From Mustelus asterias (taxonomy: Eukaryota): a DNA stretch of 64,000 bases. Position 1 is the first letter of the stretch; every line of letters starts with the position of its first letter. Shown piece by piece: positions 32,820 through 64,000 of this stretch. The stretch is taken from contig NC_135808.1 in the NCBI RefSeq assembly GCF_964213995.1, forward strand, positions 23,622,001 to 23,686,000, in the 5' to 3' direction. The position numbers were made by a program, and so were the translations under genes. Below the pieces are notes generated by a model. It saw only the letters and a list, made by a program, of their open reading frames with translations, was not told the origin of the DNA and made no database searches.

Positions 32820-35800
32820 TCCCAGGGGGACCAATATCCTGGCGGGAAGGTTGGCTAAGGCTACTGGAGAGACTTTAAACTAGAAAGATTGGGGGGAGGG
32901 AATCGAAATGAGGGGACTGAGAGCGAGGAGGTTAGCTCGCAAATAGATAAGGAATGTAGACAGGGTAAGAGGGAGGTTAGACGAGTGATGGAGAAGGGAA
33001 GTGCTCAGGCTGAAGGTCTGAGATGTGTCTATTTTAATGCCAGGAGTGTAGTGAATAAAGTGGATGAGCTTAGAGCGTGGATTGCTGCTTCGAATTGTGA
33101 TGTGGTGGCCATTACGGAGACTTGGATGTCTCAGGGACAGGACTGGGTGCTTCAGGTGCCGGGTTTTAGATGTTTCAAGAAGGACAGGGAGGGAGGCAAG
33201 AGAGGGGGGGGAGTGGCACTGTTGATCAGGGATAGTGTCACGGCTGTAGAGAAGGTGGACGCCGTGGAGGGATTGACTACGGAGTCTCTGTGGGTGGAGG
33301 TTAGGAACAGGAAGGGGTCGGTAACTTTGCTGGGTGTTTTCTATAGGCCGCCCAATAGTAACAGAGATGTTGAGGAGCAGATGGGGAAACAGATCCTGGA
33401 GAGATGTAGGAATAACAGAGTTGTCGTGATGGGAGATTTTAATTTCCCAAACATAGATTGGAATATCCCTAGGGCTAGGGGTTTGGATGGAGAGGAGTTT
33501 GTTAGGTGTGTCCAGGAGAGTTTCCTGACACAGTATGTGGATAAGCCTACTAGAGGAGAGGCTGTACTTGATCTGGTGCTGGCTAATGAATCTGGACAGG
33601 TGGAGGATCTCTCGGTGGGTGAGCATCTTGGGGATAGCGATCATAATTCTATCTCCTTCACGATAGCATTGGAAAGAGATAGGATCAGGCAGGCTAGGAA
33701 AGTGTTTCTCTGGAGTAAAGGGAAATACAGTGTCATCAGGGAGGAAATTAGACGGGTAAATTGGAAGGAGGCATTCTTGGGGAAAAGTACCGAAGGAAAG
33801 TGGAGGATTTTCAAGGAATGTTTGTCTGGAGCTCTGCATGACAACGTTCCGATGAGACAGGGGGGTGTTGGTAGGGTACGGGAACCGTGGTGCACGAAGG
33901 TTGTGATGAACCTGGTGAATAAGAAAAGAGAGGCGTACAGAAGGTTCAGAGAGCTAGGAGGTGTTAAGGATTTAGAGGAGTATACGGGATGTAGGAAGGA
34001 GCTTAAGAAGGAAATTAGGAGAGCAAGAAGGGGTCATGAGAAGACCTTGGCGGGTAAGATTAAAGAGAATCCCAAGGCTTTCTACAAATATGTCAAGAGT
34101 AAAAGGATGAGATGTGAAGGCATAGGACCCTTAAAAGGTGAAGGGGGAAAAGTTTGTGCGGAACCGTTAGAAATGGCGGAGGTGCTTAATGAATACTTTA
34201 CCTCGGTATTCAAGGTGGAAAGGGATCTGGGTGGTTGTACTGCTGGTTTGCGGTGGACAGAAAGGATCGAGCATGTGGACATAAAGAAAGAGGATGTGTT
34301 GGAACTATTGAATGGCATCAAGGTTGGTAAGTCGCCGGGACCGGATGGGATGTACCCCAGGTTACTGTGGGAGGCGAGGGAGGAGATTGCGGAGCCTTTG
34401 GCGATGATCTTTGCATCGTCGATGGAGACGGGAGAGGTTCCGGAGGATTGGAGGATTGCAGATGTGGTCCCTATAGTCAAGAAAGGGAACAGGGACAGCC
34501 CGGGAAATTACCGACCGGTGAGTCTAACCTCAGTGGTTGGTAAGTTGATGGAGAGGATCCTGAGAGACAGGATTTATGATAATCTAGAGAAGTTTAGTAT
34601 GATCAAAAGTAGTCAGCACGGCTTTGTCAAGGGCAGGTCGTGCCTTACGAGCCTGGTTGAGTTCTTTGAAAATGTGACCAAACACATTGACGAAGGAAGA
34701 GCGGTGGATGTGGTCTATATGGACTTCAGCAAGGCGTTCGATAAGGTCCCCCATGCAAGACTTCTTGAGAAAGTGAGAGGGCATGGGATCCAAGGGGCTG
34801 TTGCCTTGTGGATCCAGAACTGGCTTGCCTGCAGAAGGCAGAGAGTGGCTGTGGAGGGGTCTTTCTCTGCATGGAGGTCAGTGACCAGTGGAGTGCCCCA
34901 GGGATCTGTTCTGGGACCCTTGCTGTTTGTCATTTTCATAAATGACCTGGATGAGGAAGTGGAGGGATGGGTTGGTAAGTTTGCTGACGACACCAAGGTA
35001 GGTGGTGTTGTGGATAGTTTGGAGGGATGTCAGAAGTTGCAGCGAGACATAGATAGAATGCAAGACTGGGCGGAGAAGTGGCAGATGGACTTCAACCCGG
35101 ATAAGTGTGTAGTGATCCATTTTGGCAGATCCAATGGGATGAAGCAGCAGTATAATATGAAGGGTACCATTCTTAGCAGTGTAGAGGATCAGAAGGACCT
35201 TGGGGTCCGGGTCCATAGGACTCTTAAATCGGCCTCGCAGGTGGAGGATGCGGTCAAGAAGGCGTACGGCGTACTAGCCTTCATTAATCGAGGGATTGAG
35301 TTTAGGAGTCGGGAGATAATGCTGCAGCTTTATAGGACCCTGGTTAGACCCCACTTGGAGTACTGCGCGCAGTTCTGGTCACCTCATTACAGGAAAGATG
35401 TTGAAGCCATTGAAAGGGTGCAGAGGAGATTTACAAGGATGTTGCCTGGATTGGGGGGCATGCCTTATGAGGATAGGTTGAGGGAGCTTGGTCTCTTCTC
35501 CCTGGAGAGACGAAGGATGAGAGGTGACCTGATAGAGGTTTACAAGATGTTGAGAGGTCTGGATAGGGTAGACTATCAGAGGCTATTTCCAAGGGCTGAA
35601 ATGGTTGCTACGAGAGGACACAGGTTTAAGGTGCTGGGGGGTAGGTACAGAGGAGATGTCAGGGGTAAGTTTTTCACTCAGAGGGTGGTGGGTGAGCGGA
35701 ATCGGCTGACAAAGAACAAAGAACAAAGAACAGTACAGCACAGGAAACAGGCCCTTCGGCCCTCCAAGCCTGTGCCGCTCCTTGGTCCAACTAGACCAAT

Positions 35801-38800
35801 CGTTTGTATCCCTCCATTCCCAGGCTGCTCATGTGACTATCCAGGTAAGTCTTAAACGATGTCAGCGTGCCTGCCTCCACCACCCTACTTGGCAGCGCAT
35901 TCCAGGCCCCCACCACCCTCTGTGTAAAAAACGTCCCTCTGATGTCTGAGTTATACTTCGCCCCTCTCAGCTTGAGCCCATGACCCCTCGTGATCGTCAC
36001 CTCCGACCTGGGAAAAAGCTTCCCACTGTTCACCCTATCTATACCCTTCATAATCTTGTATACCTCTATTAGATCTCCCCTCATTCTCCGTCTTTCCAAG
36101 GAGAACAACCCCAGTCTACCCAATCTCTCCTCATAGCTAAGACCCTGGCAACATCCTGGTAAACCTTCTCTGCACTCTCTCCAATGCCTCCACGTCCTTC
36201 TGGTAGTGCGGCGACCAGAACTGGACGCAGTATTCCAAATGCGGCCTAACCAGCGTTCTATACAGCTGCATCATCAGACTCCAGCTTTTATACTCTATAC
36301 CCCGTCCTATAAAGGCAAGCATACCATATGCCTTCTTCACCACCTTCTCCACCTGTGTTGCCACCTTCAAGGATTTGTGGACTTGCACACCTAGGTCCCT
36401 CTGTGTTTCTATACTCCTGATGACTCTGCCATTTATTGCATAACTCCTCCCTACATTATTTCTTCCAAAATGCATCACTTCGCATTTATCCGGATTAAAT
36501 TCCATCTGCCACCTCTCCGCCCAATTTTCCAGCCTATCTATATCCTGCTGTATTGCCCAACAATGCTCTTCGCTATCCGCAATTCCAGCCATCTTTGTGT
36601 CATCCGCAAACTTGCTGATTACACCAGTTACACCTTCTTCCAAATCATTTATATATATCACAAATAGCAGAGGTCCCAGTACAGAGCCCTGCGGAACACC
36701 ACTGGTCACAGACCTCCAGCCGGAAAAAGACCCTTCGACCACTACCCTCTGTCTCCTATGGCCAAGCCAGTTCTCCACCCATCGAGCCACTTCTCCTTGT
36801 ATTCCATGAGCCTTAACCTTCTTAACCAACCTGCCATGTGGGACTTTGTCAAATGCCTTACTGAAATCCATATAGACGACATCCACGGCCCTTCCTTCAT
36901 CAACCGTTTTTGTCACTTCCTCAAAAAACTCCACCAAATTTGTAAGGCACGACCTCCCTCTTACAAAACCATGCTGTCTGTCACTAATGAGATTGTTCCG
37001 TTCTAAATGCACATACATCCTGTCTCTAAGAATCCTCTCCAACAACTTCCCTACCACGGACGTCAAGCTCACCGGCCTATAATTTCCTGGGTTATCCCTG
37101 CTACCCTTCTTAAACAACGGGACCACATTCGCTATCCTCCAATCCTCAGGGACCTCACCCGTGTCCAAAGAAGCGACAAAGATTTCCGTCAGAGGCCCAG
37201 CAATTTCCTCTCTCGTCTCCCTGAGCAGTCGAGGATAGATGCCATCAGGCCCTGGGGCTTTGTCAGTTTTAATGTTCCCTAAAAAACCTAACACTTCCTC
37301 TCTCGTAATGGAGATTTTCTCTAACGGGTCAACACCTCCCTCCAAGACACGCCCGGTTAACACGCCCCTCTCCTTCGTGAATACCGATGCAAAGTATTCA
37401 TTTAGGATCTCCCCTATTCCCTTGGGTTCTAAGCATAATTCCCCTCCTTTGTCCCTGAGAGGTCCGATTTTCTCCCTGACAACTCTTTTGTTCCTAACGT
37501 ATGAATAGAATGCCTTAGGATTCTCCTTAATCCTGCCTGCCAAGAACATCTCGTGCCCTCTTTTTGCCCTTCTAACTCCCCGTTTGAGATCTTTCCTACT
37601 CTCTCTGTATTCCTCCAGAGCTCCATCTGTTTTCAGTTGCCTGGACCTAACGTACGCCTCCCTTTTCATTTTAATCAGATCCTCAATTTCCCTGGTTATC
37701 CACGGCTCTCGAATCCTACCTTTCCTATCTTTCCTTTTTACAGGCACATGCCTATCCTGCAGCTTTATCAATAGTTCCTTAAAAGACTCCCACATGCCAG
37801 ACGCGGACTTACCCTCGAACATCCTCTCCCAATCAACATCCACCAATTCCTGCCTAATCCGGCTATAGTCAGCCTTCCCCCAATTTAGCACCCTGCCCGT
37901 AGGACAGCACTCATCCTTGTCCATTACTATCCTAAAGTTAACAGAGTTGTGGTCACTATTTGCCACATGTTCCCCTACCGAAACTTTGACGACCTGACCG
38001 GGCTCATTTCCCAGAACTAGGTCCAGTATAGCCCCCTCTCTAGTCGGGCTATCTACATACTGTTCCAAAGAACCTTCCAGTACGCATTTTACAAATTCCT
38101 CCCCGTCCGGTCCCCCAGCTCTAAGCACTTTCCAGTCTGTGCCAGGGAAATTAAAGTCCCCCACTCCAACAACCCTATTTTTTCTGCACCTATCCAGAAT
38201 CTCCTGACATATCCTTTCCTCCACTTCCCGTGGGCTGTTGGGTGGTCTGTAGTACACCCCCAGCATAGTGACTGCACCCTTCCTGTTTCTGAGTTCCACC
38301 CACAGCGACTCAGTACATGACCCCTCTAAGTTGTCTACCCTCTGCACCACGGTAATATGCTCCTTAACTAATATCGCTACTCCCCCACCTTTTTTAGCCC
38401 CTCCTCTGTCTCGCCTAAAACACTGATACCCCGGAATATTCAGCTGCCAGTCCTGTCCTTCTTTTAACCAAGTTTCCGTCACCGCAACCACATTCAAATT
38501 CCGCACAAGCATTAAGGCCCTAAGTTCGTCTGTTTTACCCGTTACACTCCTCGCATTGAAGCAGATGCACTCCAGACCTCCAGGCCCAGTCAGGTCCTCC
38601 TCCTCCAGAGTGCTCCTCTTCTTAGCTAGCCTTGCCCTGGCCCCCAGCTCGACCCCAGCCTCAGTATTTACTGACCTCCTGTTTTGTTCCCCACCCCCCT
38701 GCCACACTAGTTTAAATCCTGCCGAAACACTCGAGCAGGACGTCGGTGGTGGTGGAGGCAAACTCGTTGGGGTCTTTTAAGAGACTTCTGGATGAGTACA

Positions 38801-39914: not shown

Positions 39915-42376
39915 TGATGTGGAGATGCCGGCGTTGGACTGGGGTAAACACAGTAAGAAGTTTAACAACACCAGGTTAAAGTCCAACAGGTTTATTTGGT
40001 AGCAAAAGCCACACAAGCTTTCGGGAACACAATGAGACAGCCAATGAACCGGAACAGCCGACAGAGAGATCCGCAGTGCATCCGAAGAGGAAAGAGTCGA
40101 ATTGGACTCCTCCGGAAGGCCGCTGCCCTCGACTTGACATGTATGCCCAAGCCGTCAGGAGGTGCGTCAACACCAAATTCATCAGCCGCACTCACAAGAC
40201 AGCCCCGAACATCACCCAAGCACAACGTAACGCCATCCACGCTCTCAAGACCAACCGCAACATTGTCATCAAACCAGCAGACAAAGGAGGGGCCATCGTC
40301 ATACTGAACAGAACGGATTACTGCAAAGAAGTGTACCAACAACTCAACAACGAGGAACACTACAGACAGTTACCTGCAGATCCGACCAAAGAACACACCC
40401 GTCAACTCAACACTCTGATCAAGACCTTTGATCCGGACCTTCAGAACACCCTCCGTGCTCTCATCCCACGTACTCCCCGCGTTGGAGATCTCTACTGCCT
40501 CCCGAAGATACACAAGGCAAACACACCCGGCCGTCCCATCGTATCGGGCAATGGGACCCTGTGCGAGAACCTCTCCGGCTATGTCGAGGGCATCCTGAAA
40601 CCCATTGTACAAAGAACCCCCAGCTTTTGTCGCGACACGACGGACTTCCTACAGAAACTCGGCACACATGGAGCAGTTGAACCAGGAGCGCTCCTCGTCA
40701 CAATGGATGTCTCAGCACTCTACACCAGCATCCCCCATGACGATGGCATTGCTGCAACGGACTCAGTGCTCAGCGCCAACAACTGCCAGTTTCCAGATGC
40801 AATTTTACATCTCATCCGCTTCATCCTGGACCACAATATCTTCACCTTCAACAGCCAGTTCTTCATCCAGACACACGGAACAGCCATGGGGACCAAATAT
40901 GCACCTCAATAAGCCAACATCTTCATGCACAGGTTCGAACAAGACTTCTTCACCGCACGGGACCTTCAACCGATGCTATACACTAGATACATCGATGACA
41001 TTTTCTTCCTTTGGACTCATGGTGAACAATCACTGAAACAACTCTATGATGACATCAACAAGTTCCATCCCACCATTAGGCTCACCATAGACTACTCTCC
41101 GGAATCGGTTGCATTCTCGGACACGCGCATCTCCATTAAGGACGGTCACCTCAGCACCTCACTGTACCGCAAGCCCACGGATAACCTCACGATGCTCCAC
41201 TACTCCAGCTTCCACCCTAAACACGTTAAAGAAGCCATTCCCTACGGACAAGCCCTCCGTATACAGAGGATCTGCTCAGATGAGGAGGATCGCAACAGAC
41301 ACCTCCAGACGCTGAAAGATGCCCTCATAAGAACAGGATATGGCGCTAGACTCATTGATCAACAGTTCCAACGCGCCACAGCGAAAAACCGCACCGACCT
41401 CCTCAGAAGACAAACACGGGACACAGTGGACAGAGTACCCTTCGTCGTCCAGTACTTCCCCGGAGCGGAGAAGCTAGGGCATCTCCTCCGGAGCCTTCAA
41501 CATGTCATTGATGAAGACGAACATCTCGCCAAGGCCATCCCCACACCCCCACTTCTTGCCTTCAAACAACCGCACAACCTCAAACAGACCATTGTCCGCA
41601 GCAAACTACCCAGCCTTCAGGAGAACAGTGACCAAGACACCACACAACCCTGCCACAGCAACCTCTGCAAGACGTGCCGGATCATCGACACAGATGCCAT
41701 CATCTCATGTGAGAACACCATCCACCAGGTACACGGTACATACTTTTGCAACTCGGCCAACGTTGTCTACCTGATACGCTGCAAGAAAGGATGTCCCGAG
41801 GCATGGTACATTGGGGAAACTATGCAGACGCTGCGACAACGGATGAATGAACACCGCTCGACAATCACCAGGCAAGACTGTTCTCTTCCTGTTGGGGAGC
41901 ACTTCAGCGGTCACGGGCATTCGGCCTCTGATATTCGGGTAAGCGTTCTCCAAGGCGGCCTTCGCGACACACGACAGCGCAGAGTCGCTGAGCAGAAACT
42001 GATAGCCAAGTTCCGCACACACAGGGACGGCCTCAACCGGGATATTGGGTTCATGTCACAATATTTGTAACTCCCACAGTTGCGTGGACCTGCAGAGTTT
42101 CACTGGCTGTCTTGTCTGGAGACAATACACATCTTTTTAGCCTGTCTTGATGCTCTCTCCACTCCCATTGTTTTGTTTCTTAAAGACTGGATTAGTTGTA
42201 AGTATTCGCATTCCAACCATTATTCATGTAAATTGAGTCTGTGTCTTTATAAATTCTGTTTGTGAACAGAATTCCCACTCACCTGAAGAAGGGGCTTAGA
42301 GCCTCGAAAGCTTGTGTGGCTTTTGCTACCAAATAAACCTGTTGGACTTTAACCTGGTGTTGTTAAACTTCTTACG
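39915..42376 (+). mobile_element. Penelope-like element (Neptune type) with inverted partial pLTR; RT and GIY-YIG, one premature stop at 40910-40912
   Basis: IKPADKG, GTAMG, RYIDDIF, Cys motif PCHSNLCKTC, VVYLIRC...WYIGET; 39915-40023 is an inverted copy of the pLTR end; TSD atattgtaatat at 39903-39914 and 42377-42388. Confidence 0.95.
42280..42316 (+). ncRNA. Minimal type I hammerhead ribozyme candidate
   Basis: CAC-CUGAAGA-A-GGGGC/uuaga/GCCUC-GAAAGCUU-GUG. Confidence 0.7.
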
Positions 42377-53708: not shown

Positions 53709-56397
53709 TGGATACAAACAGTTCACAGCTTGTCCAGTCCTGTTTGAAAAGTTACTGTGCTTGTTCAGGAATGAATCGATTTGAAAAAGTGAAGAGTTGA
53801 TCGGGCAGAGTTCAATTGAAAGGTAAAATGGTGCACAAAGAAACAGTATTTGGAGATTTGATGCTTGGATCAGAGTAGGGAAATTGGAATGTTTGGGAGA
53901 AAGTCGACAGGAAGAAACAAATAGTGAGAGATCACGGAGATGTGAGACCAAAGATTAGATTATTGAATCAGGATGAAGAAATGGATCTCGCTGCTTTTCA
54001 GAAATGGGCTGTTGATGTCTGGTTGGTGGAATATCAGAAGCAGGTTCGAAAAAGAAATTTAAGAAACTCAAGGTAAAGTTTAAAATACTGTGTGAACAAC
54101 CGGGTTGTTTATGTTCAGAGATATCCTGATTTGTAAACAAACAACTGTTCCTTTTACTTTAAGAATATTTCTCCATTCTGTGCACAGATCTAAAGGATAT
54201 GAAGCAACCTGTGTCCATGTGGGTGAAACGGTGGCACGGTAGTTAGCACTGCTGCCTCACTGTACCAGGGACCAAGGTTCGATTCCGGCTTTGGCCAACT
54301 GTCAGTTTGGATAAGATGCTCTTTCGGAGAGTCAGCTTGGAGGTGAAGGGCTAAACGGCCTCCTTCTGCACTGTAGGAATTCTGTGGATTCTATGTGATG
54401 TAAGAGGTGAACAAAATTCAGGCTCAGGCTGATAAGTGGAAGATTACATTCACACCCACAACTGCCAGGCAATGGCCATCTCTAACATTAGTGAAGCAAA
54501 CTATCTCTTCTTGACATTTGGAGTTACAGAATTGTTCTGGTATTGACAGAGGCTATTTAGCCCATTGTCCTATAATTTTCAAGTTGAAGAAGTTTGTAAA
54601 AGTTTTGGAATTGAAACACACTCTGTTGGAAACTCCGCCCTCTGTTGTTTCAATGTAACAATCTTCAATGTTTCCTTTTCTGTTATTTGTGAAACGCGGT
54701 TTTCCCTTAATTTCAACAACAGACATTAGTGAAGAAAGAAGATGTGGTGGAATTTATTTTATCCCATTTTAAAAGGCACGTGCTGCGTTTTTAAGGTTTA
54801 AAAGTTCCACAGTGAAACTTGAAGTGATGTGAGAAAGAATTGTGTGGACAGATGTGTGTGTGTAAACGTCCTGTTAGTGAATGAGGAAAGGCTGTGTGAA
54901 TGCTCTGTGTTGCTGTTCCTTCAGACCGGCTCCAACTCTGATGTGTTTTCCTGAAAATGGTCAGGTCTCAAGGGGGAGAACAGTTTAAAAGTTTTGAAAC
55001 TGGGAGGTTGTTGCCGCTACAATGAAACGGGTGAAACATGTGGGATTTCTAATCCAGATACAAATTCACAACTGTCAGAGTGGGATCGTTTTTTTAAGCT
55101 TTGATGGTGTAATTTCAAATTCAGGAGCTGAATTTAAAGTGATTGTTCATGGATTATTCTTGTGTTTAAAATCTTCATAAAAATCAACCTGGGGAACATT
55201 TGGGACTTTATCTTCTAATCCATTTTTCTCCAAGATTTTTATTCGGAAATATCCAGTTTGAAATGGTGAATCCACAAGACTTGAAGAAATATCTTTGTTC
55301 TGCTGAAACCGCCATTACTCTGAGAACATTGTAACCCAGTCACTTTTTGAAACTGCGGTGACAGTGAATTCCTTCACCAAACGTGTTTTAATTTAGAATT
55401 AACCCATTCGGCTCCGAGCAGAATAAACCTTTTCTGTTGTTTTCATAAAACACACACACACACACACAGCTAACAATTGTGTCCAATATTGCAGGGAATA
55501 TTTCCAACAGTGACAAGAATTGGAAACTTATCTGCAGCTCCAAATGTCAGATCGCGGTGACGGTTTGATACAAAGGCTCTGATATTTCCATGATGTTTGT
55601 TATTTCCCCAGACAGAGTGCTTGGGAAGGGGGGATGTGACATAAACACACTCACCAATGAATAGCGGAGATTAAAAGAAAAATCAGGAACGGGTAGAAGA
55701 TATTGGAATTCATGAGTTCAATGCAGATGAGATTCGCACCCGATTTCTCACACATTCCAGCGCGAGGCTGAATAAAATACTTGACTACATTCAAAACCTG
55801 TTTTAAACAAAATGAGCGAGCCCGCGGCGCAATCATCTGGGCTCTCGTCTCTGTGGCCTCACGGGAGAGGTTCTTTCCAGCGAGAATCACAACAGGGACC
55901 AGACCCGATGCCTCGCTCGTGGATCCAGATGCCATTGAAGCCACCCCGAGAAGTTGGGGGGAGTGCCTAGCGGACTGTGCCAGCCTGGTATCTTGGAAGT
56001 GCCCACCAGGCAGTGGGTAGTGGGAAGGGTGTGGAGCCTGATTATTCGGGAGGGCGGGGGGGGGCTGCTCTACTGGGGTGGGACCAAACTGTGGTGATGG
56101 GGGGTTGGGTGCGCTGCACACTCTGCATTTGCAAATTGGGGTGTGTGGGGTCTACTGCCACTCAGTATTTGCCATCAGTGAGGGAAGTAGCGGGGGCTAC
56201 TGCATTGCGATCGGTGCTGGATGGACAGGGAAATTCGGTCCAAATGGTGGGGTGGGGGTGGGTCACGGGGTTCAATCTGTCCGGGCATGTGGGGTGTCGC
56301 GGGGTCAATTGGTCTGACCATCAGGGGTCGTATTAGGCCACAGACCGCCGTGGCAGCTGGGGAGGTCCGTGTTTAGGCCATGGAGGTCTGGTGAAAG

Positions 56398-56967
56398 TGT
56401 GGATGTGGATATATGTGTAGTGATGCTTGGATCGTGATGTCTTCCTCAATTGTAGAAACTATTAATAATCTAATGCTTACAGTATTGTAGTATAAGTGAG
56501 TATAAACTATTGCCTGGCTTCTGGCGGCTGGGTGAGGTGATGTGATGGTATGGCCTTGTTCTGCAGACAACTGCCTACCAAGATAAGCTGAATGCAGCTG
56601 CAATCACTTGTTATCACACAAGTGTTCTGTGTTGCAGCAGACGGCACAGAATGTGACTGGCCAGTGAAGGTCAGCACGAGGAGTGCACGAAGCATTATTA
56701 TCCTCTGATTGGTAACGAGTATATTGGGGCTATAGCTGGTAGGCTATCGGGCCGCTTGCATGTGTTGGAAAAAAAGTATTTGTATTGTACCAAAACAAAG
56801 CAGTGTGTTCAGTCTCCCCTGAGGACTGCAGGCTTTGTTAGCCTGCATCATTAAGGAAGACTGACCCAACGTCGTAACAGAATGAAATAAAGAGGTTGAT
56901 TAAACACCCGGAGTTGAATCGATCTGTTGTCGAAGCAAGTTTGATAGAGTGTAAATTGAGGTTATCA
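56398..56967 (+). repeat. 5' LTR (570 bp)
   Basis: TG...CA; direct repeat of 60739-61309; AATAAA near 56886. Confidence 0.95.
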
Positions 56968-56969
56968 TT

Positions 56970-56987
56970 TGGTGTCAAAAGTGGGAT
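56970..56987 (+). promoter_or_regulatory. Primer-binding site, tRNA-Leu type
   Basis: TGGTGTCAAAAGTGGGAT, one mismatch to the recalled tRNA-Leu PBS TGGTGTCAGAAGTGGGAT. Confidence 0.85.
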
Positions 56988-57399: not shown

Positions 57400-57930
57400 A
57401 TGGGGAACTATTGGGATACAATCAATCAGACAAATTCAGCCTTACAAATGCTTTGCGAGAAATATCCGGATAAAGCCACCAAAATGAGACAATTGTCGGG
57501 GGCATTGACCCATAAATTAGGGCCATCGAATGGCCCCCAGGAGGGACCAAAAATATCCAACTTGTTAAAGCTGCACAGCAACAAATTTGGCTAAAAGAAT
57601 ATGGGAAGGAAGACGAAGGAGCTCATAGGGCTATGGTTGCAACGTTGTCAGGAGTTAAAGGAGCAGAGTCTCCTATCCAGCTGGCAGGACAATGCTGTTA
57701 AGTTGGGAATAGAATTAATGGAGGGAGGGACTCCAAAACCGGTTGAGGTGTTGAAAAGGGAATGCTTACATAAGAAACGCTCTCTTCAGGATTGTGAGGC
57801 TTCTGAGATAGGGAACATGATGGATGGCATTAAGGTCACTGATAATGATACAGATGAGGATCTGCACCATTGGATGACGGGGGCAACTACACCTCTTCCG
57901 CCTCACCCGCCTCAAGAGCAGCCCTTACAG
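57400..57930 (+). pseudogene. gag: ERV gag N-terminus (matrix and Pro-rich region), frameshifted and truncated
   Basis: MGNYW start with Gly2; WPPGGT matrix-like motif in a shifted frame. Confidence 0.7.
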
Positions 57931-59280
57931 TGATTAAGTGCGCCGCCCATACCGCTGGTAAAGACCCTGTCACTTTAGGGAACCATAGGGCAGATGAGGC
58001 GGCCAAATTGGTTTCTAAAACTTGTCAGATGATTGTGCCCCGAATGATGAGGCAGGGGAAAAGTCCGGACGCGGATGGCCCTGCCTCTGAGAAACCCATG
58101 CCAACCATCGGTGATGTTCTTAGATTGCAACAGGAAGCCTTGCCTTGTGATAAAGATTTATGGAATGTATTGGGCTGTAGGGTGGACCCAGAATCCAGAG
58201 TCTGGATCACCCCTGCTAACCAAACCTGTATGTCTGATACTTTGGCTCTCTGGGTAATTGATTGTGTACTTTGCAACTCACTGTGGCGCAAGGTCTCTTA
58301 GTGATTTACTCCTCACTTCCTGGTGGCATCCTTGCCTACAGGACATGGCACAAAGTCTAAGCCTCCGCTGTTTGATCTGCCAACAGCATAATTCGGGCAA
58401 GGGTGCGCCCTGTGATCTGGGTAAGACTCCCCTGCCGGCAGGCCCCTTCGAGACCCTGCAGATGGACTTCATTGAGTTGCAGAGATGTCAGGGGTATAAA
58501 TATGTCTTAGTAATCGTGGATGTCTTTAGGAAGTGGATTGAAGCATATCCTACATCGGACAACAAAGTGACAACTGTCGTCTGGATTTTACTGCGCGGAA
58601 TTGTGCCTCGATTTGGCGTCCCGACCTGCCTGAGTTCTGACAATGGCCCACATTTTATTGCATCGGTCAATAAGGAGCTGTGCACCCAGCTGAATATTCG
58701 CCAACAACTCCATTGCGCTCACCATCCCCAAGCTGCTGGTGTAGTCGAACGCTCCAATCAAACGCTCAAAACCAAGCTGGCTAAACTTGTAGAAACTTCA
58801 GGTCTGTCTTGGGTCAGACTACTCCCTGTAGCTTTATTTCAAATACGAACCACCCCTGCAGGACCGCCCCGTCTCTCACCCGCGGAGGTCTTGTATGGTC
58901 GACCCCTGCAGACCCCTTGGGATGATGGGTCAATGACGCCCATTCATTTCCATCATATGACGGATGAAATGACCTCATATATCCTCTCCCTTGCCCACTC
59001 CTTGCGCCATCTCCATTCGCAAGTCCGAGCTGCTTACGGTAAACCACCTACCTTATCTACTCCCACTAAAGTAAAACCGGGCTCATTTGTCCTTATCAGA
59101 AATTGGACTCGCAAGCATTTAGAGCCGCAGTGGGAGGGCCCCATGCCAAGTCTTGTTAACCACCCCTACATCGGCTAAGGTGGCGGGTCGCGATGCTTGG
59201 GTCCACCTCCACCACTGTGAATTGATCGGGCAAGCCGATCCCAAAAAGGGGGGAATTGAGGATGACAGGGAGGAGGATTT
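57930..59280 (+). pseudogene. pol: ERV pol C-terminus: RNase H end and integrase
   Basis: VIKCAAH...GNHRADEAAK; THCG...CLIC; QMDFIEL, SDNGPHF, GVVERSNQTLK; LEPQWEGP. Confidence 0.92.
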
Positions 59281-59294
59281 TATGGATGATTAGT

Positions 59295-60678
59295 ATGAGA
59301 GGCTGTATCGGGTGACATGCTCTTTACTCTGTGGTTGTTATGCTTGTCATTATGTTTTTGTCCCGTCCAGGTGGTGGTCAAGTGTGGACAAACCAGCATG
59401 CAATCGGCAAAAATAGTCTTGGGGCTCATCAGCTTGGTGTTGTAAGAAGGGAGGGATTGGGGTGCTCCACAGTTTATGTGTGCCAGGATCACCCCTGCCT
59501 GAGTAAGCATTGCCATCAGCATAAATGTGGGTACGAAGCCCAGAGAAATGAGGTAATCTGTAAGTGTTTGCATTCGACCTGCATAGACTTGGAAAAAGGG
59601 GAAAATATAATTTGTGGCCATATGAATGGCACCCACCTTCATGTTTACGGTAGGGACTTTTCGATAGTACAGATTAATGCAGAAGGAAGACAGTCGGCAC
59701 CAGCATGAAAGGGTTCCGGATCCCAGAATTTGGGAACCGATGATACCTATTACCGGGTTCAAGCCAACGGGGAATGGCAAAAGTGTTCAGAGACCATGTA
59801 CACTGAAACAGGGTATTTCTTCTTTTTCAATGGTTCGGCCACCAATTATTTGTCCTACCCTTACCCCCGTTCAGTGGCAATAGGGACCATGCTTCCCAGT
59901 ATGGTTCCTTGTCCGAGCCGTTGGGGGCCCTCACGTCATCACCATAGGAGGCCAGAGCGGGAGTTATCGGAGGATTTTTGCGCTGACTCCAAGGAAATCA
60001 CTGCCCTCACTCCTGGTCAGGCTGCTGGCTATGGAGCGGCGGGTTTCTTTTCCTTTGGAGCCGTCCCAGGGCGAATGGCTGCAGATAATCGTAATTACAT
60101 TGCTTGCAGCCTTACCACCTTGGGGAACGCGACAAGAGGAGCCCTCCGGGTCATCACCGCCCAACTAGAGAAACTCAGGCTGTATGCCCAGCAGAATAGA
60201 TATGCCTCGGATTAGCTGCTGGCTCGACAAGGAGGCCTGTGTGCCATAGCGAAGGATAACTGCGTACTGGAACTAGATAAGGTCACTACTAATCTCACTA
60301 ATTACCTGAACCAAATTGACCAGCAGCTAGGGTCTATTAGAGAGGGCGAGGGGATTAGGGGAATGGGAACTGTCAGGATGGCTTGGTTGGTTAAGGAATG
60401 TGGGATTATATGCCATACTTTTGGTTCTGTGTATAAGTATTGGAATTGGAATTGTAAAGTGTCTCATCGCACGGGTGATGACCACCTTGGAATCGATAGG
60501 ATCACGACCAACTCAACCGATGATGTTCACCGCGAGTGAGGAGGAAGAGGACAAGGAATACAAACCCATACTGGACGACGAGGTGCTGGAAGAAACTCGA
60601 CGAGAAGTGGAGGCAGAATTGTATGCGGAGGTTGAGAGAGATAAAGTAATATTGGACTTGATGAAAATACAATTGTAA
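59295..60678 (+). pseudogene. env: ERV env (short SU, TM with internal fusion loop); three in-frame stops and one frameshift near 60350
   Basis: Signal peptide, RRPER cleavage site ending at 59960, QNRYASD*LLARQGGLC immunosuppressive-like domain, CX6C, membrane anchor GLYAILLVLCISIGIGIV. Confidence 0.9.
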
Positions 60679-60726: not shown

Positions 60727-60738
60727 AAAAGGGGGGAA
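60727..60738 (+). promoter_or_regulatory. Polypurine tract
   Basis: AAAAGGGGGGAA directly before the 3' LTR. Confidence 0.9.
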
Positions 60739-61309
60739 TGTGGATGTGGATATATGTGTAGTGATGCTTGGATCGTGATGTCTTCCTTAATTGTCGAAAC
60801 TATTAATAATCTAATGCTTACAGTTTTATAGTATAAGTGAGTATAAACTATTGCCTGGCTCCTGGCGGCTGGGTGAGGTCATGTGATGGTATGGCCTTGT
60901 TCTGCAGACAACTGCCTACTAAGATAAGCTGAATGCAGCTGCGATCACTTGTTATCACACAAGTGTTCTGTGTTGCAGCGTACGTGCACAGAATGTGACT
61001 GGCCAGTGAAGGTCAGCACGAGGAGTGCACGAAGCATTATTATCCTCTGATTGGTAACGGGTATATTGGGGCTATAGCTGGTAGGCTATCGGGCCGCTTG
61101 CATGTGTTAGAAAAAAAGTATTTGTATTGTACCAAAACAAAGAAGTGTGTTCAGTCTCCCCTGAGGGCTGCAGGCTTTGTTAGCCTGCATCATTAAGGAA
61201 GACTGACCCGACGTCGTAACATAATGAAATAAAGAGGTTGATTAAACACCTGGAGTTGAATCGATTTGTTGTCGAAGCAAGTTTGATAGAGTGTAATTTG
61301 AGATTATCA
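60739..61309 (+). repeat. 3' LTR (571 bp)
   Basis: About 20 substitutions and 1 indel versus the 5' LTR by manual count. Confidence 0.95.
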
Positions 61310-61835
61310 AATATTTCTCCATTCTGTGCACAGATCTATAGAATGTGAAGCTATCTGTGTCCATGAGGGTGGCAGTGGTTAGCACTGCTGCCTCACAGTG
61401 CCGGGGACGCGGGTTCAATTCCGGCCTTGGCCCACTGTCAGTTTAGAGTCTGGATAAGATGCTCTTTCATTAGAATAGGAATGGATGTGATGGGCTAAAT
61501 GGCCTTATGCACAGTAGGAATTCGATGCATTCTATGTGATGCAAGAGGTGAATGGAATTCAGGCTTTGGCTGATAAGTGGAAGATTACATTCACACCCAC
61601 AAAAGTGCCAGGCAATGGCTATCCCTAACAATAGTGAAGCTAACTATCTCTCCTTGACATTTGGAGTTACAGAATTGTTCTGGTGTTGACAGAGGCTATT
61701 TGGCCCATTGTCTCATAATTTTTAGATTGAAAAAGTTTGTAAAAGTTTTGGAATTGGAAACTCTGCCCTCTGGTTTCAATGTAACAATCTTCAAGGTTTC
61801 CTTTTCTGTTATTTGTGAAATGCAATTTTCCCTTA
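61310..61835 (+). repeat. Duplicate of 54163-54710
   Basis: Both begin aatatttctccattctgtgcacagatcta and share the same SINE and LINE remnants. Confidence 0.88.
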
Positions 61836-62589: not shown

Positions 62590-62825
62590 AAATGAATCAT
62601 AGAAACCCTACAATGCAGAAGGAGGCCATTCGGCCCATCGAGTCTGCACCGACCACAATCCCACCCAGGCCCTGCCCCCCACATATTTACCCGCTAATCC
62701 CTCTAACCTACGCATCTCAGGGGCAATTTTAACCTGGCCAATCAACCTAAGCCGCACATCTTTGGACTGTGGGAGGAAACCGGAGCACCCGGAGGAAACC
62801 CACGCAAACCCACGCAAACCCACGT
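62590..62825 (-). mobile_element. HE1 SINE 3' part
   Basis: Reverse complement of 47975-48200. Confidence 0.85.
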
Positions 62826-64000
62826 ATGTCAAGAACAGAAGGTTGGTTAGGGCAAGTTTAGGGCCAGTTATAGACGGCAGAGGGAAGTTATGTGTGGAAC
62901 CGGAGGAGATTGGTGAAGCATTGAACCAATATTTCTCTTCGGTGTTCACGCAAGGGGACATGAATATAGCTGAGGAGGACACTGGGTTGCAGGGGAGTAG
63001 AATAGACAGTATTACAGTTGATAAGGAGGATGTGCAGGATATTCTGGAGGGTCTGAAAATAGATAAATCCCCTGGTCCGGATGGGATTTATCCAAGGATT
63101 CTCTGGGAGGCAAGAGAAGTGATTGCAGAGCCTCTGGCTCTGATCTTCAGGTCGTCGTTGGCCTCTGGTATAGTACCAGAAGATTGGAGGTTAGCGAATG
63201 TTGTCCCATTGTTTAAGAAGGGGAACAGAGACTTCCCCGGGAATTATAGACCGGTGAGTCTCACTTCTGTTGTCGGCAAGATGTTGGAAAAAATTATAAG
63301 GGATAGGATTTATAGTTATTTGGAGAGTAATGAATTGATAGGTGATAGTCAGCATGGTTTTGTGGCAGGTAGGTCGTGCCTTACTAACCTTATTGAGTTT
63401 TTTGAGAAAGTGACCAAGGAGGTGGATGGGGGCAAGGCAGTGGACGTGGTATATATGGATTTTAGTAAGGCGTTTGATAAGGTTCACCATGGTAGGCTTC
63501 TGCAGAAAATGCAGATGTATGGGATTGGGGGTGATCTAGGAAATTGGATCAGGAATTGGCTAGCGGATAGGAAACAGAGGGTGGTGGTTGATAGTAAATA
63601 TTCATCATGGAGTGCGGTTACAAGTGGTGTACCTCAGGGATCTGTTTTGGGGCCACTGCTGTTTGTAATATTTATTAATGATCTGGATGAGGGTATAGTT
63701 GGGTGGATTAGCAAATTTGCTGATGACACCAAAGTCGGTGGTGTGGTAGACAGTGAGGAAGGGTGTCGTAGTTTGCAGGAAGACTTAGACAGGTTGCAAA
63801 GTTGGGCCGAGAGGTGGCGGATGGAGTTTAATGCGGAGAAGTGTGAGGTAATTCACTTTGGTCGGAATAACAGATGTGTTGAGTATAGGGCTAACGGGAG
63901 GACTTTGAATAGTGTGGAGGAGCAGAGGGATCTAGGTGTATGTGTGCATAGATCCCTGAAAGTTGGGAATCAAGTAGATAAGGTTGTTAAGAAGGCATAT
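62826..64000 (+). mobile_element. CR1 LINE ORF2 (RT), running off the window
   Basis: KSPGPDGIYPR, NYRPVSLTS, GVPQGSVLGPLLF, KFADDTK. Confidence 0.92.

Follow-up and report, generated by a model that had tools for sequence, protein, structure and literature searches.

The 64,000-nucleotide stretch of Mustelus asterias DNA analyzed here (hereafter the window) probably holds the broken env of a deleted class I-like ERV, whose TM carries an internal hydrophobic stretch between two cysteines that is likely a filovirus-style fusion loop and whose SU is predicted to have been held to TM non-covalently. The kinship of shark envelopes with filoviruses is already known, and the window env is another member of the chondrichthyan clade reported by Nino Barreat and Katzourakis, 2024 (PMC11521997), who list 14 loci from Amblyraja, Scyliorhinus, Chiloscyllium, Rhincodon, and Leucoraja. 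In these, as in the window, env occupies the 3' end of an LTR element that carries retroviral domains and has filovirus or CAS virus GP as its best viral matches; we infer that the window family belongs to the same clade from these matches and from the shared genera. The broad inference of the first-pass annotation, that a cartilaginous-fish retrovirus carried this class of fusogen, is correct, though the link between shark ERVs and filoviruses that it offered as new was already in print (PMC11521997). What we add is the loop, the predicted non-covalent SU-TM association, the homology of the shark SU to that of lizard Mab-Env2, a weak grouping with Tapajos virus GP and Mab-Env2, and the occurrence of one env clade on two types of pol; this anatomical detail may define a variant of the known clade. 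The terms fusion loop, fusion peptide, cysteine, disulfide, and CX6CC have no occurrences in the main text of PMC11521997, and our literature search turned up no account of the loop, or of the missing cysteine, in shark envs (the percomORF, Mabuya Mab-Env2, and Chen et al. journal papers lay beyond its reach).

The provirus that holds the env spans 4.9 kb, with all features on the forward strand. It is bounded by a 5' LTR (56398..56967, TG...CA) and a 3' LTR (60739..61309, delimited by alignment to the 5' LTR and to other copies), which are identical at 550 of 570 aligned bases. The primer binding site (56970..56987) is of the tRNA-Leu type: 16 of its 18 bases match a tRNA-Leu(CAG) gene of the same genome at its 3' end, counting the added CCA, and the match is exact in two other family copies. 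Reading frames and comparison with longer copies revealed a 5' remnant of gag (57400..57927) that starts with MG and has an internal stop at 57592. It ends at a deletion junction (57925..57927), placed by blastn against two longer copies (L031 and L034), at which about 4.0 kb comprising the rest of gag, protease, RT, and most of RNase H is gone. The 3' remnant of pol (57925..59293) consists of the end of RNase H and the integrase and is frameshifted (Pfam rve, E = 4e-18; MLVIN_C, E = 0.003). The env start had been placed at 59295 in the first-pass annotation, but the frame of that ATG stops at codon 7; the ATG at 59398, in another frame, fits the N-terminus of a longer copy (L047), and 59398..59441 is the probable true env start with a remnant of the signal peptide. 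Comparison with longer copies shows a further junction (59441..59447), where about 520 nt of the N-terminal half of SU is missing; both this deletion and that in gag-pol had been overlooked. The remaining C-terminal half of SU (59447..59945; SU profile match, 168 bits) is cysteine-rich, contains a stop at 59706-59708, and ends in a conserved VPCP motif. It is followed by a probable furin site, RRPER (59946..59960; minimal R-X-X-R), recognized by comparison of copies, and by TM: a Cys-x41-Cys segment with an internal hydrophobic stretch rich in Gly and aromatic residues (59979..60107), which is the predicted internal fusion loop; HR1 with a sequon at 60126, an ISD-like stretch, and a stop at 60213-60215 (60108..60239; PDB and Pfam profile alignments); a CX6C-V chain-reversal motif (60240..60266); HR2 with a sequon at 60291 and a frameshift near 60340-60355 (60267..60350; reading frames and Ebola alignment); and, as an open reading frame in the shifted frame, the membrane anchor and acidic cytoplasmic tail (60400..60678, stop at 60676-60678). 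A polypurine tract (60727..60738) precedes the 3' LTR.

With these breaks, the full Env cannot come from the window copy, and the locus is a dead copy; co-option of this env copy was considered and rejected. The shortened form of the provirus recurs at L048, which is 92.6% identical over 4.9 kb, so the deleted form was itself copied. The stop at 60213 is common to two near-identical copies on the same contig, which would point to a segmental duplication. We found no target-site duplication at the window provirus when comparing the 3' LTR side with the 5' flank, and 4-base duplications are present at two other family copies. In addition, the 3' flank (61310-61835) is repeated about 7.1 kb upstream (54164-54709) at 85-91% identity; together with the missing target duplication, this repeat suggests a local rearrangement. 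Elsewhere in the window, the long frames at 32859-38776, 39980-42070, and 62603-64000 are presumably of LINE (CR1-like) and Penelope-like elements, judging by their motifs.

To place the pol of this family, we turned to a longer copy that is 90-93% identical to the window copy, in which RT is deleted. The RT of the longer copy scored 164 bits against MLV, 109 against foamy virus, and 80 against HIV-2. Because this RT is closest to that of MLV and the C-terminus of the integrase is of the MLV type (MLVIN_C), the family is class I-like, as the first-pass annotation had proposed. A second family in the same genome has a TM that is about 45% identical and an RT that is 37% identical to that of the first family and scores 137 bits against foamy virus versus 123 against MLV; going by these scores rather than by a tree, this RT appears to be class III-like. 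Since class I-like and class III-like families both occur in one genome, a single env clade sits on two distant pol backbones. A swap of this kind between env and pol has been reported for anamniotes by Chen et al. (bioRxiv 10.1101/2021.11.23.469661), whose anamniote gamma-type classes resemble the shark families in the CXnC subtype, in occurring in cartilaginous-fish lineages, and in the pairing of a class III pol with a class I env; the S1 figure of that preprint maps an 'Alpha_FP (flanked by a pair of cysteines)'. The families with class III-like RT (matches of 44-47% identity) are young and multi-copy: of the 150 matches listed, more than 30 fall in open frames some 500 codons long, the LTR pairs that were sampled share 97-99.9% identity, and some copies have long open gag, pol, and env. 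A second, very young provirus (LTRs 99.9% identical), whose env belongs to the same clade, sits in reverse orientation inside the env of two duplicate copies of the window provirus on the same contig (L041:1148-8117 and L042:1130-8099), at a point equivalent to window 59752-59755; the insertion is absent from the window.

The main feature of TM that had been noted, a C-x41-C segment after RRPER and ahead of HR1, was borne out: the peptide reads in one frame at 59946-60305, interrupted by the TAG at 60213-60215. TM does not start with a hydrophobic peptide. The 20 residues that follow RRPER have polar character (mean Kyte-Doolittle -0.45), so that a strict gamma-type Env's N-terminal fusion peptide is absent, and the best hydrophobic 13-mer falls within the loop in both the shark TM (1.10) and Ebola GP2 (1.23). 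Using Ebola GP2 (5JQ3 chain B, P0207; cysteines at 511, 556, 601, 608, and 609) as reference, the loop spacing is 41 residues in the shark TM versus 44 in Ebola. We reproduced the gap-free fit to C556-C601 with 19 of 46 residues identical, and both sequons lie at the same distance from the closing cysteine in the two proteins, 7 residues for the sequon at the start of HR1 (the N563 offset) and 62 for the other (the N618 offset). We scored 150 genomic matches, drawn from 3366 candidates, and assessed conservation in the best 30 of them. The first loop cysteine is kept in 29 of 30 and the second in 29 of 30, with both kept in 28, an outcome that the first-pass annotation had named beforehand as a test; the Asn of each sequon is kept in all 30. 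In the same set, the cleavage site reads RRPER in 23, RRLER in 3, and RRLKR in 2, with a canonical furin site in only 2 of the 30. A gamma-type ISD-like stretch precedes the chain-reversal cysteines (TLV_coat, E = 3e-4, under the curated cut-off). The chain-reversal motif itself is CX6C and not CX6CC, a point missed by the first-pass annotation: the residue after the second cysteine is V in the window copy and I, T, V, or R among the 30 best matches, never Cys (0 of 30). The same CX6C without a third cysteine is found in named relatives from Pristiophorus, Mobula, Heterodontus, Hemiscyllium, Rhincodon, and Leucoraja, and the third cysteine is absent from every shark-clade, Mab-Env2, and Tapajos protein with a readable TM motif.

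It is this third cysteine that links TM to SU in envelopes of the gamma type and in those of ASLV and filoviruses, as described in part in PMC3758190. The shark TM ectodomain has only four cysteines, which would form two internal pairs with none to spare, so SU is predicted to be held without a disulfide throughout the shark clade. On the SU side, a pattern search found one Cys motif near each end in all 10 shark-clade proteins examined, as well as in Mab-Env2 and Tapajos GP, and we predict that these terminal cysteines pair with each other. No CXXC isomerase motif was found in SU in the frames of families A and A2 that we examined, and families B and C have CGXC in mid-SU. By the same kind of pattern search, neither SU-terminal Cys motif is present in four squamate ERV envs, which are also without the third cysteine. 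A clade of squamate ERV envs (P0028, P0030, P0050, P0068, and P0111, from Anolis, Ahaetulla, Phrynocephalus, and others; support 100/100) has a Cys-flanked stretch of 42-49 residues and no third cysteine. In family A, as seen at L047:7149-7480, env is extended at its N-terminus; the extension, which bears a second basic motif (RRRS) ahead of the SU core, is absent from families B and C.

We then compared the shark env to named proteins. Searching 1.84 billion proteins with a 9-row TM profile returned 837 at E ≤ 0.001 and 11 at E ≤ 1e-30. The top named matches were chondrichthyan (the six genera listed above for CX6C), and Tapajos GP was the top named virus among the matches that we looked up. 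With the shark TM profile, a loop-less fish-type env scored 71.6 bits, Tapajos GP 69.9, and Sudan GP2 65.6. None of the 492 candidates of a word-indexed protein search proved to match the TM region; because the profile search did recover close relatives, we attribute this null result to a limit of the tool. The best PDB matches, beyond what chance would give, were filovirus GP2 (E = 1e-11), with a ranking by bits of filovirus 66, post-fusion Ebola core 49.6, CAS virus 41.6, syncytin-2 35, MLV 25-29, and ASLV 18, an order that partly reflects the content of the PDB. The 19 of 46 identities had been taken as a sign of closeness to Ebola, but over the C556-C601 stretch loop-less envs reach 14-21 of 45, compared to 17-20 for filoviruses and 25 for Tapajos virus GP. 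Against the GP2 of Ebola, Sudan, Marburg, Lloviu, and Mengla viruses, the shark TM shares the Cys-flanked loop, a gap-free register from HR1 through the ISD to CX6C, and the N563 and N618 sequon offsets, whereas the filovirus proteins have CX6CC, only 8-11 of 35 loop positions are alike, and no sequence similarity is seen in SU. The reptarenavirus CAS virus gave the best non-shark match to the loop core (14 of 43 identical), but its GP2 has CX7CC, only 15 of 45 HR1-ISD residues are identical, and its SU is unrelated by profile. The label 'alpharetrovirus-type' also does not hold. The alpharetrovirus (avian gamma-type) TM has a Cys-flanked internal fusion peptide and an HR1 glycan, as set out in PMC3758190, but it differs from the shark env in its CX6CC, covalently bound SU, and class II pol, and the ASLV TM core in the PDB scored only 18 bits. 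The whole env is nearer to Mab-Env2 (ATY46612.1) and Tapajos GP (YP_010798909.1) than to Ebola. Both have the Cys-flanked internal stretch, Cys motifs at both ends of SU, and no third cysteine, and Mab-Env2 aligns with the shark env over 328 columns of SU and TM; they differ in having CX7C, versus CX6C in sharks, and a loop spacing of 37.

This relationship extends to SU. An SU-only shark profile gave 42.7 bits for Mab-Env2; the SU of Marburg, Mengla, Lloviu, and other filoviruses, like that of CAS virus, did not rise above noise. Mab-Env2 SU matched Tapajos SU at 50 bits, while the direct score of shark SU against Tapajos SU was not significant. By these profile comparisons, the shark SU is homologous to that of the lizard Mab-Env2 and, via Mab-Env2, to Tapajos virus GP. 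AlphaFold models of env had a mean pLDDT of 27.6 (9-row alignment) and 46.8 (46-row alignment), with TM below 50. The second model, of an env from a related family, was built on 46 rows that included no filovirus or CAS virus protein with a solved structure and is usable only in parts of SU. When its SU was compared with 48,161 chains, filovirus GP1 took five of the top six places, with a weak Z of 3.9 (rmsd 3.8, 93 residues aligned); syncytin-2 (Z 3.2) and gp120 (Z 2.9) scored lower, and nothing reached Z ≥ 5. A proximal-domain beta-sandwich shared by orthoretroviral SU and filovirus GP1 has been proposed in a preprint by Hotzel (bioRxiv 10.1101/2021.11.05.467493); the modeled ranking fits this proposal but, with all Z below 4, is inconclusive. 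Foldseek gave no match in the PDB at E ≤ 0.001, and its sole match at that threshold in BFVD was a chelonid herpesvirus F-env (5.6e-4), followed by EAV-HP env.

We built one tree with 117 rows (after removal of 39 that were short and of 18 members of near-duplicate clusters), one with 47 chosen rows, and later ones with 35 rows; rows for ASLV, percomORF, tarsier, and Varanus are absent from all of them. The shark envs form a single clade (98/97 with 47 rows, 93/97 with 35 rows). The expected grouping of their TM with loop-bearing TMs was recovered in that the branch to which they belong (99/94 with 47 rows, 86/91 with 35 rows) includes squamate ERVs, Tapajos/Mab-Env2, CAS virus, and mammalian filoviruses, but one or two loop-less turtle envs also fall inside it. 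When the loop columns were removed (35 rows), the shark clade split, the squamate envs fell outside the loop branch, and support for the branch dropped to 84/86. Within it, the group nearest to the sharks is Tapajos/Mab-Env2 (82/75 with 47 rows; 80/72 with 35 rows; 88/60 with loop columns removed and a turtle env included). We therefore group the shark envs with Tapajos/Mab-Env2 rather than with Ebola/Marburg, although weakly. The published tree instead makes cartilaginous-fish ERV ectodomains sister to Ebola, Cueva, Marburg, and Dianlo viruses (posterior 0.83) and places Tapajos virus with lizard elements, reporting a match in two segments between Mab-Env2 and Tapajos (PMC11521997). If the shark envs are the true sister of Ebola/Marburg GP2, the loss of the third cysteine in sharks, Mab-Env2, Tapajos, and squamate ERVs would be convergent or ancestral, and the loop mechanism would stand all the same. 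An AU test does not speak against joining sharks with mammalian filoviruses (p = 0.133), both share the exact CX6C spacing, the sequon register, and an N-x-N-x-x-x-C before the closing cysteine, and filovirus GP1 comes out on top, weakly, for SU in the second model. The three careful trees given above and the SU profile, which finds Mab-Env2 and no filovirus SU, argue the other way, and we regard the sister relationship to Ebola as a plausible reading that is nonetheless less likely than not to be the true one.

The missing third cysteine would also be explained if the two loop cysteines bonded to cysteines of SU, such as that of VPCP just upstream of the cut, so that SU and TM were covalently joined after all. 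Gamma-type Envs are otherwise covalently linked, and SU-terminal cysteines accompany the absence of the third cysteine in the shark, Mab-Env2, and Tapajos proteins. However, the squamate envs retain both loop cysteines without either SU-terminal motif, the closing cysteine sits at the exact register of Ebola C556, and for ASLV a bond between the two corresponding cysteines is described (PMC3758190); we consider a bond to SU unlikely. Even less probable, in our view, is that an ordinary gamma-type fish Env acquired a loop independently and resembles Ebola only through the conserved HR1-ISD region. Over C556-C601, filoviruses are no closer in identity than loop-less envs are, which agrees with this, and holding sharks together with loop-less envs was not rejected (p = 0.20), although that split only sets the sharks first within the loop group. 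Yet the loop core is visibly homologous to those of CAS virus GP2 and Mab-Env2, the SU is homologous to that of Mab-Env2, and the ingroup in the published tree leaves out other retroviral ectodomains (PMC11521997).

The Env was, most probably, a class I fusogen that worked by an internal loop; from its sequence features, which are shown, it would be expected to have undergone cleavage, disulfide formation, triggering, and fusion. In the original virus, furin would cut Env at R-X-X-R, and a predicted disulfide between the two flanking cysteines would clamp the fusion loop. The trigger would be receptor binding, likely followed by endosomal acid as in ASLV and filoviruses, a dependence on pH that we propose by analogy only. 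HR1 would then extend, the loop insert, and HR2 fold back to give a six-helix bundle.

The distribution of the loop bears on the origin of filovirus glycoproteins. Henzy and Johnson, 2013 (PMC3758190) describe a Cys-flanked fusion peptide as unseen in retroviral TMs outside birds and suggest from this an avian origin of Ebola/Marburg GP; because the feature occurs in sharks and squamates, this argument falls, and cartilaginous fish had already come into focus with the 2024 tree (PMC11521997). The HR1 glycan, for its part, is reported in many non-mammalian envs (Hogan and Johnson, 2023; PMC9967133). The ISD and the intersubunit disulfide have been said always to co-occur. If SU and TM are indeed non-covalently associated in the shark clade, it separates the two and offers a natural test of the role of the ISD. 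Structural work is possible on the young multi-copy relatives, whose env frames are open. We tentatively raise one further reading, which we think doubtful: that shark ERVs, Mab-Env2, and Tapajos GP represent an undescribed fourth type of retroviral envelope, with an internal loop, with SU and TM not joined by a disulfide, and with the two ends of SU stapled together, which moved between class I and class III shark retroviruses and was taken whole (SU and TM) by a filovirus. This reading, if true, would call for revision of the avian-origin argument and also of the sister grouping of sharks and Ebola that is in print. Two further frames were observed among the other copies in this genome. At L032:2224-4665, a frame that we take, from its motifs, to be a gypsy-like pol lies inside a family A provirus. 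At L035:607-2826, a 740-codon frame located a few kb upstream of an env that belongs to the shark clade resembles a different class I fusion protein, with a basic cleavage motif, a long helical region, and a C-terminal anchor.
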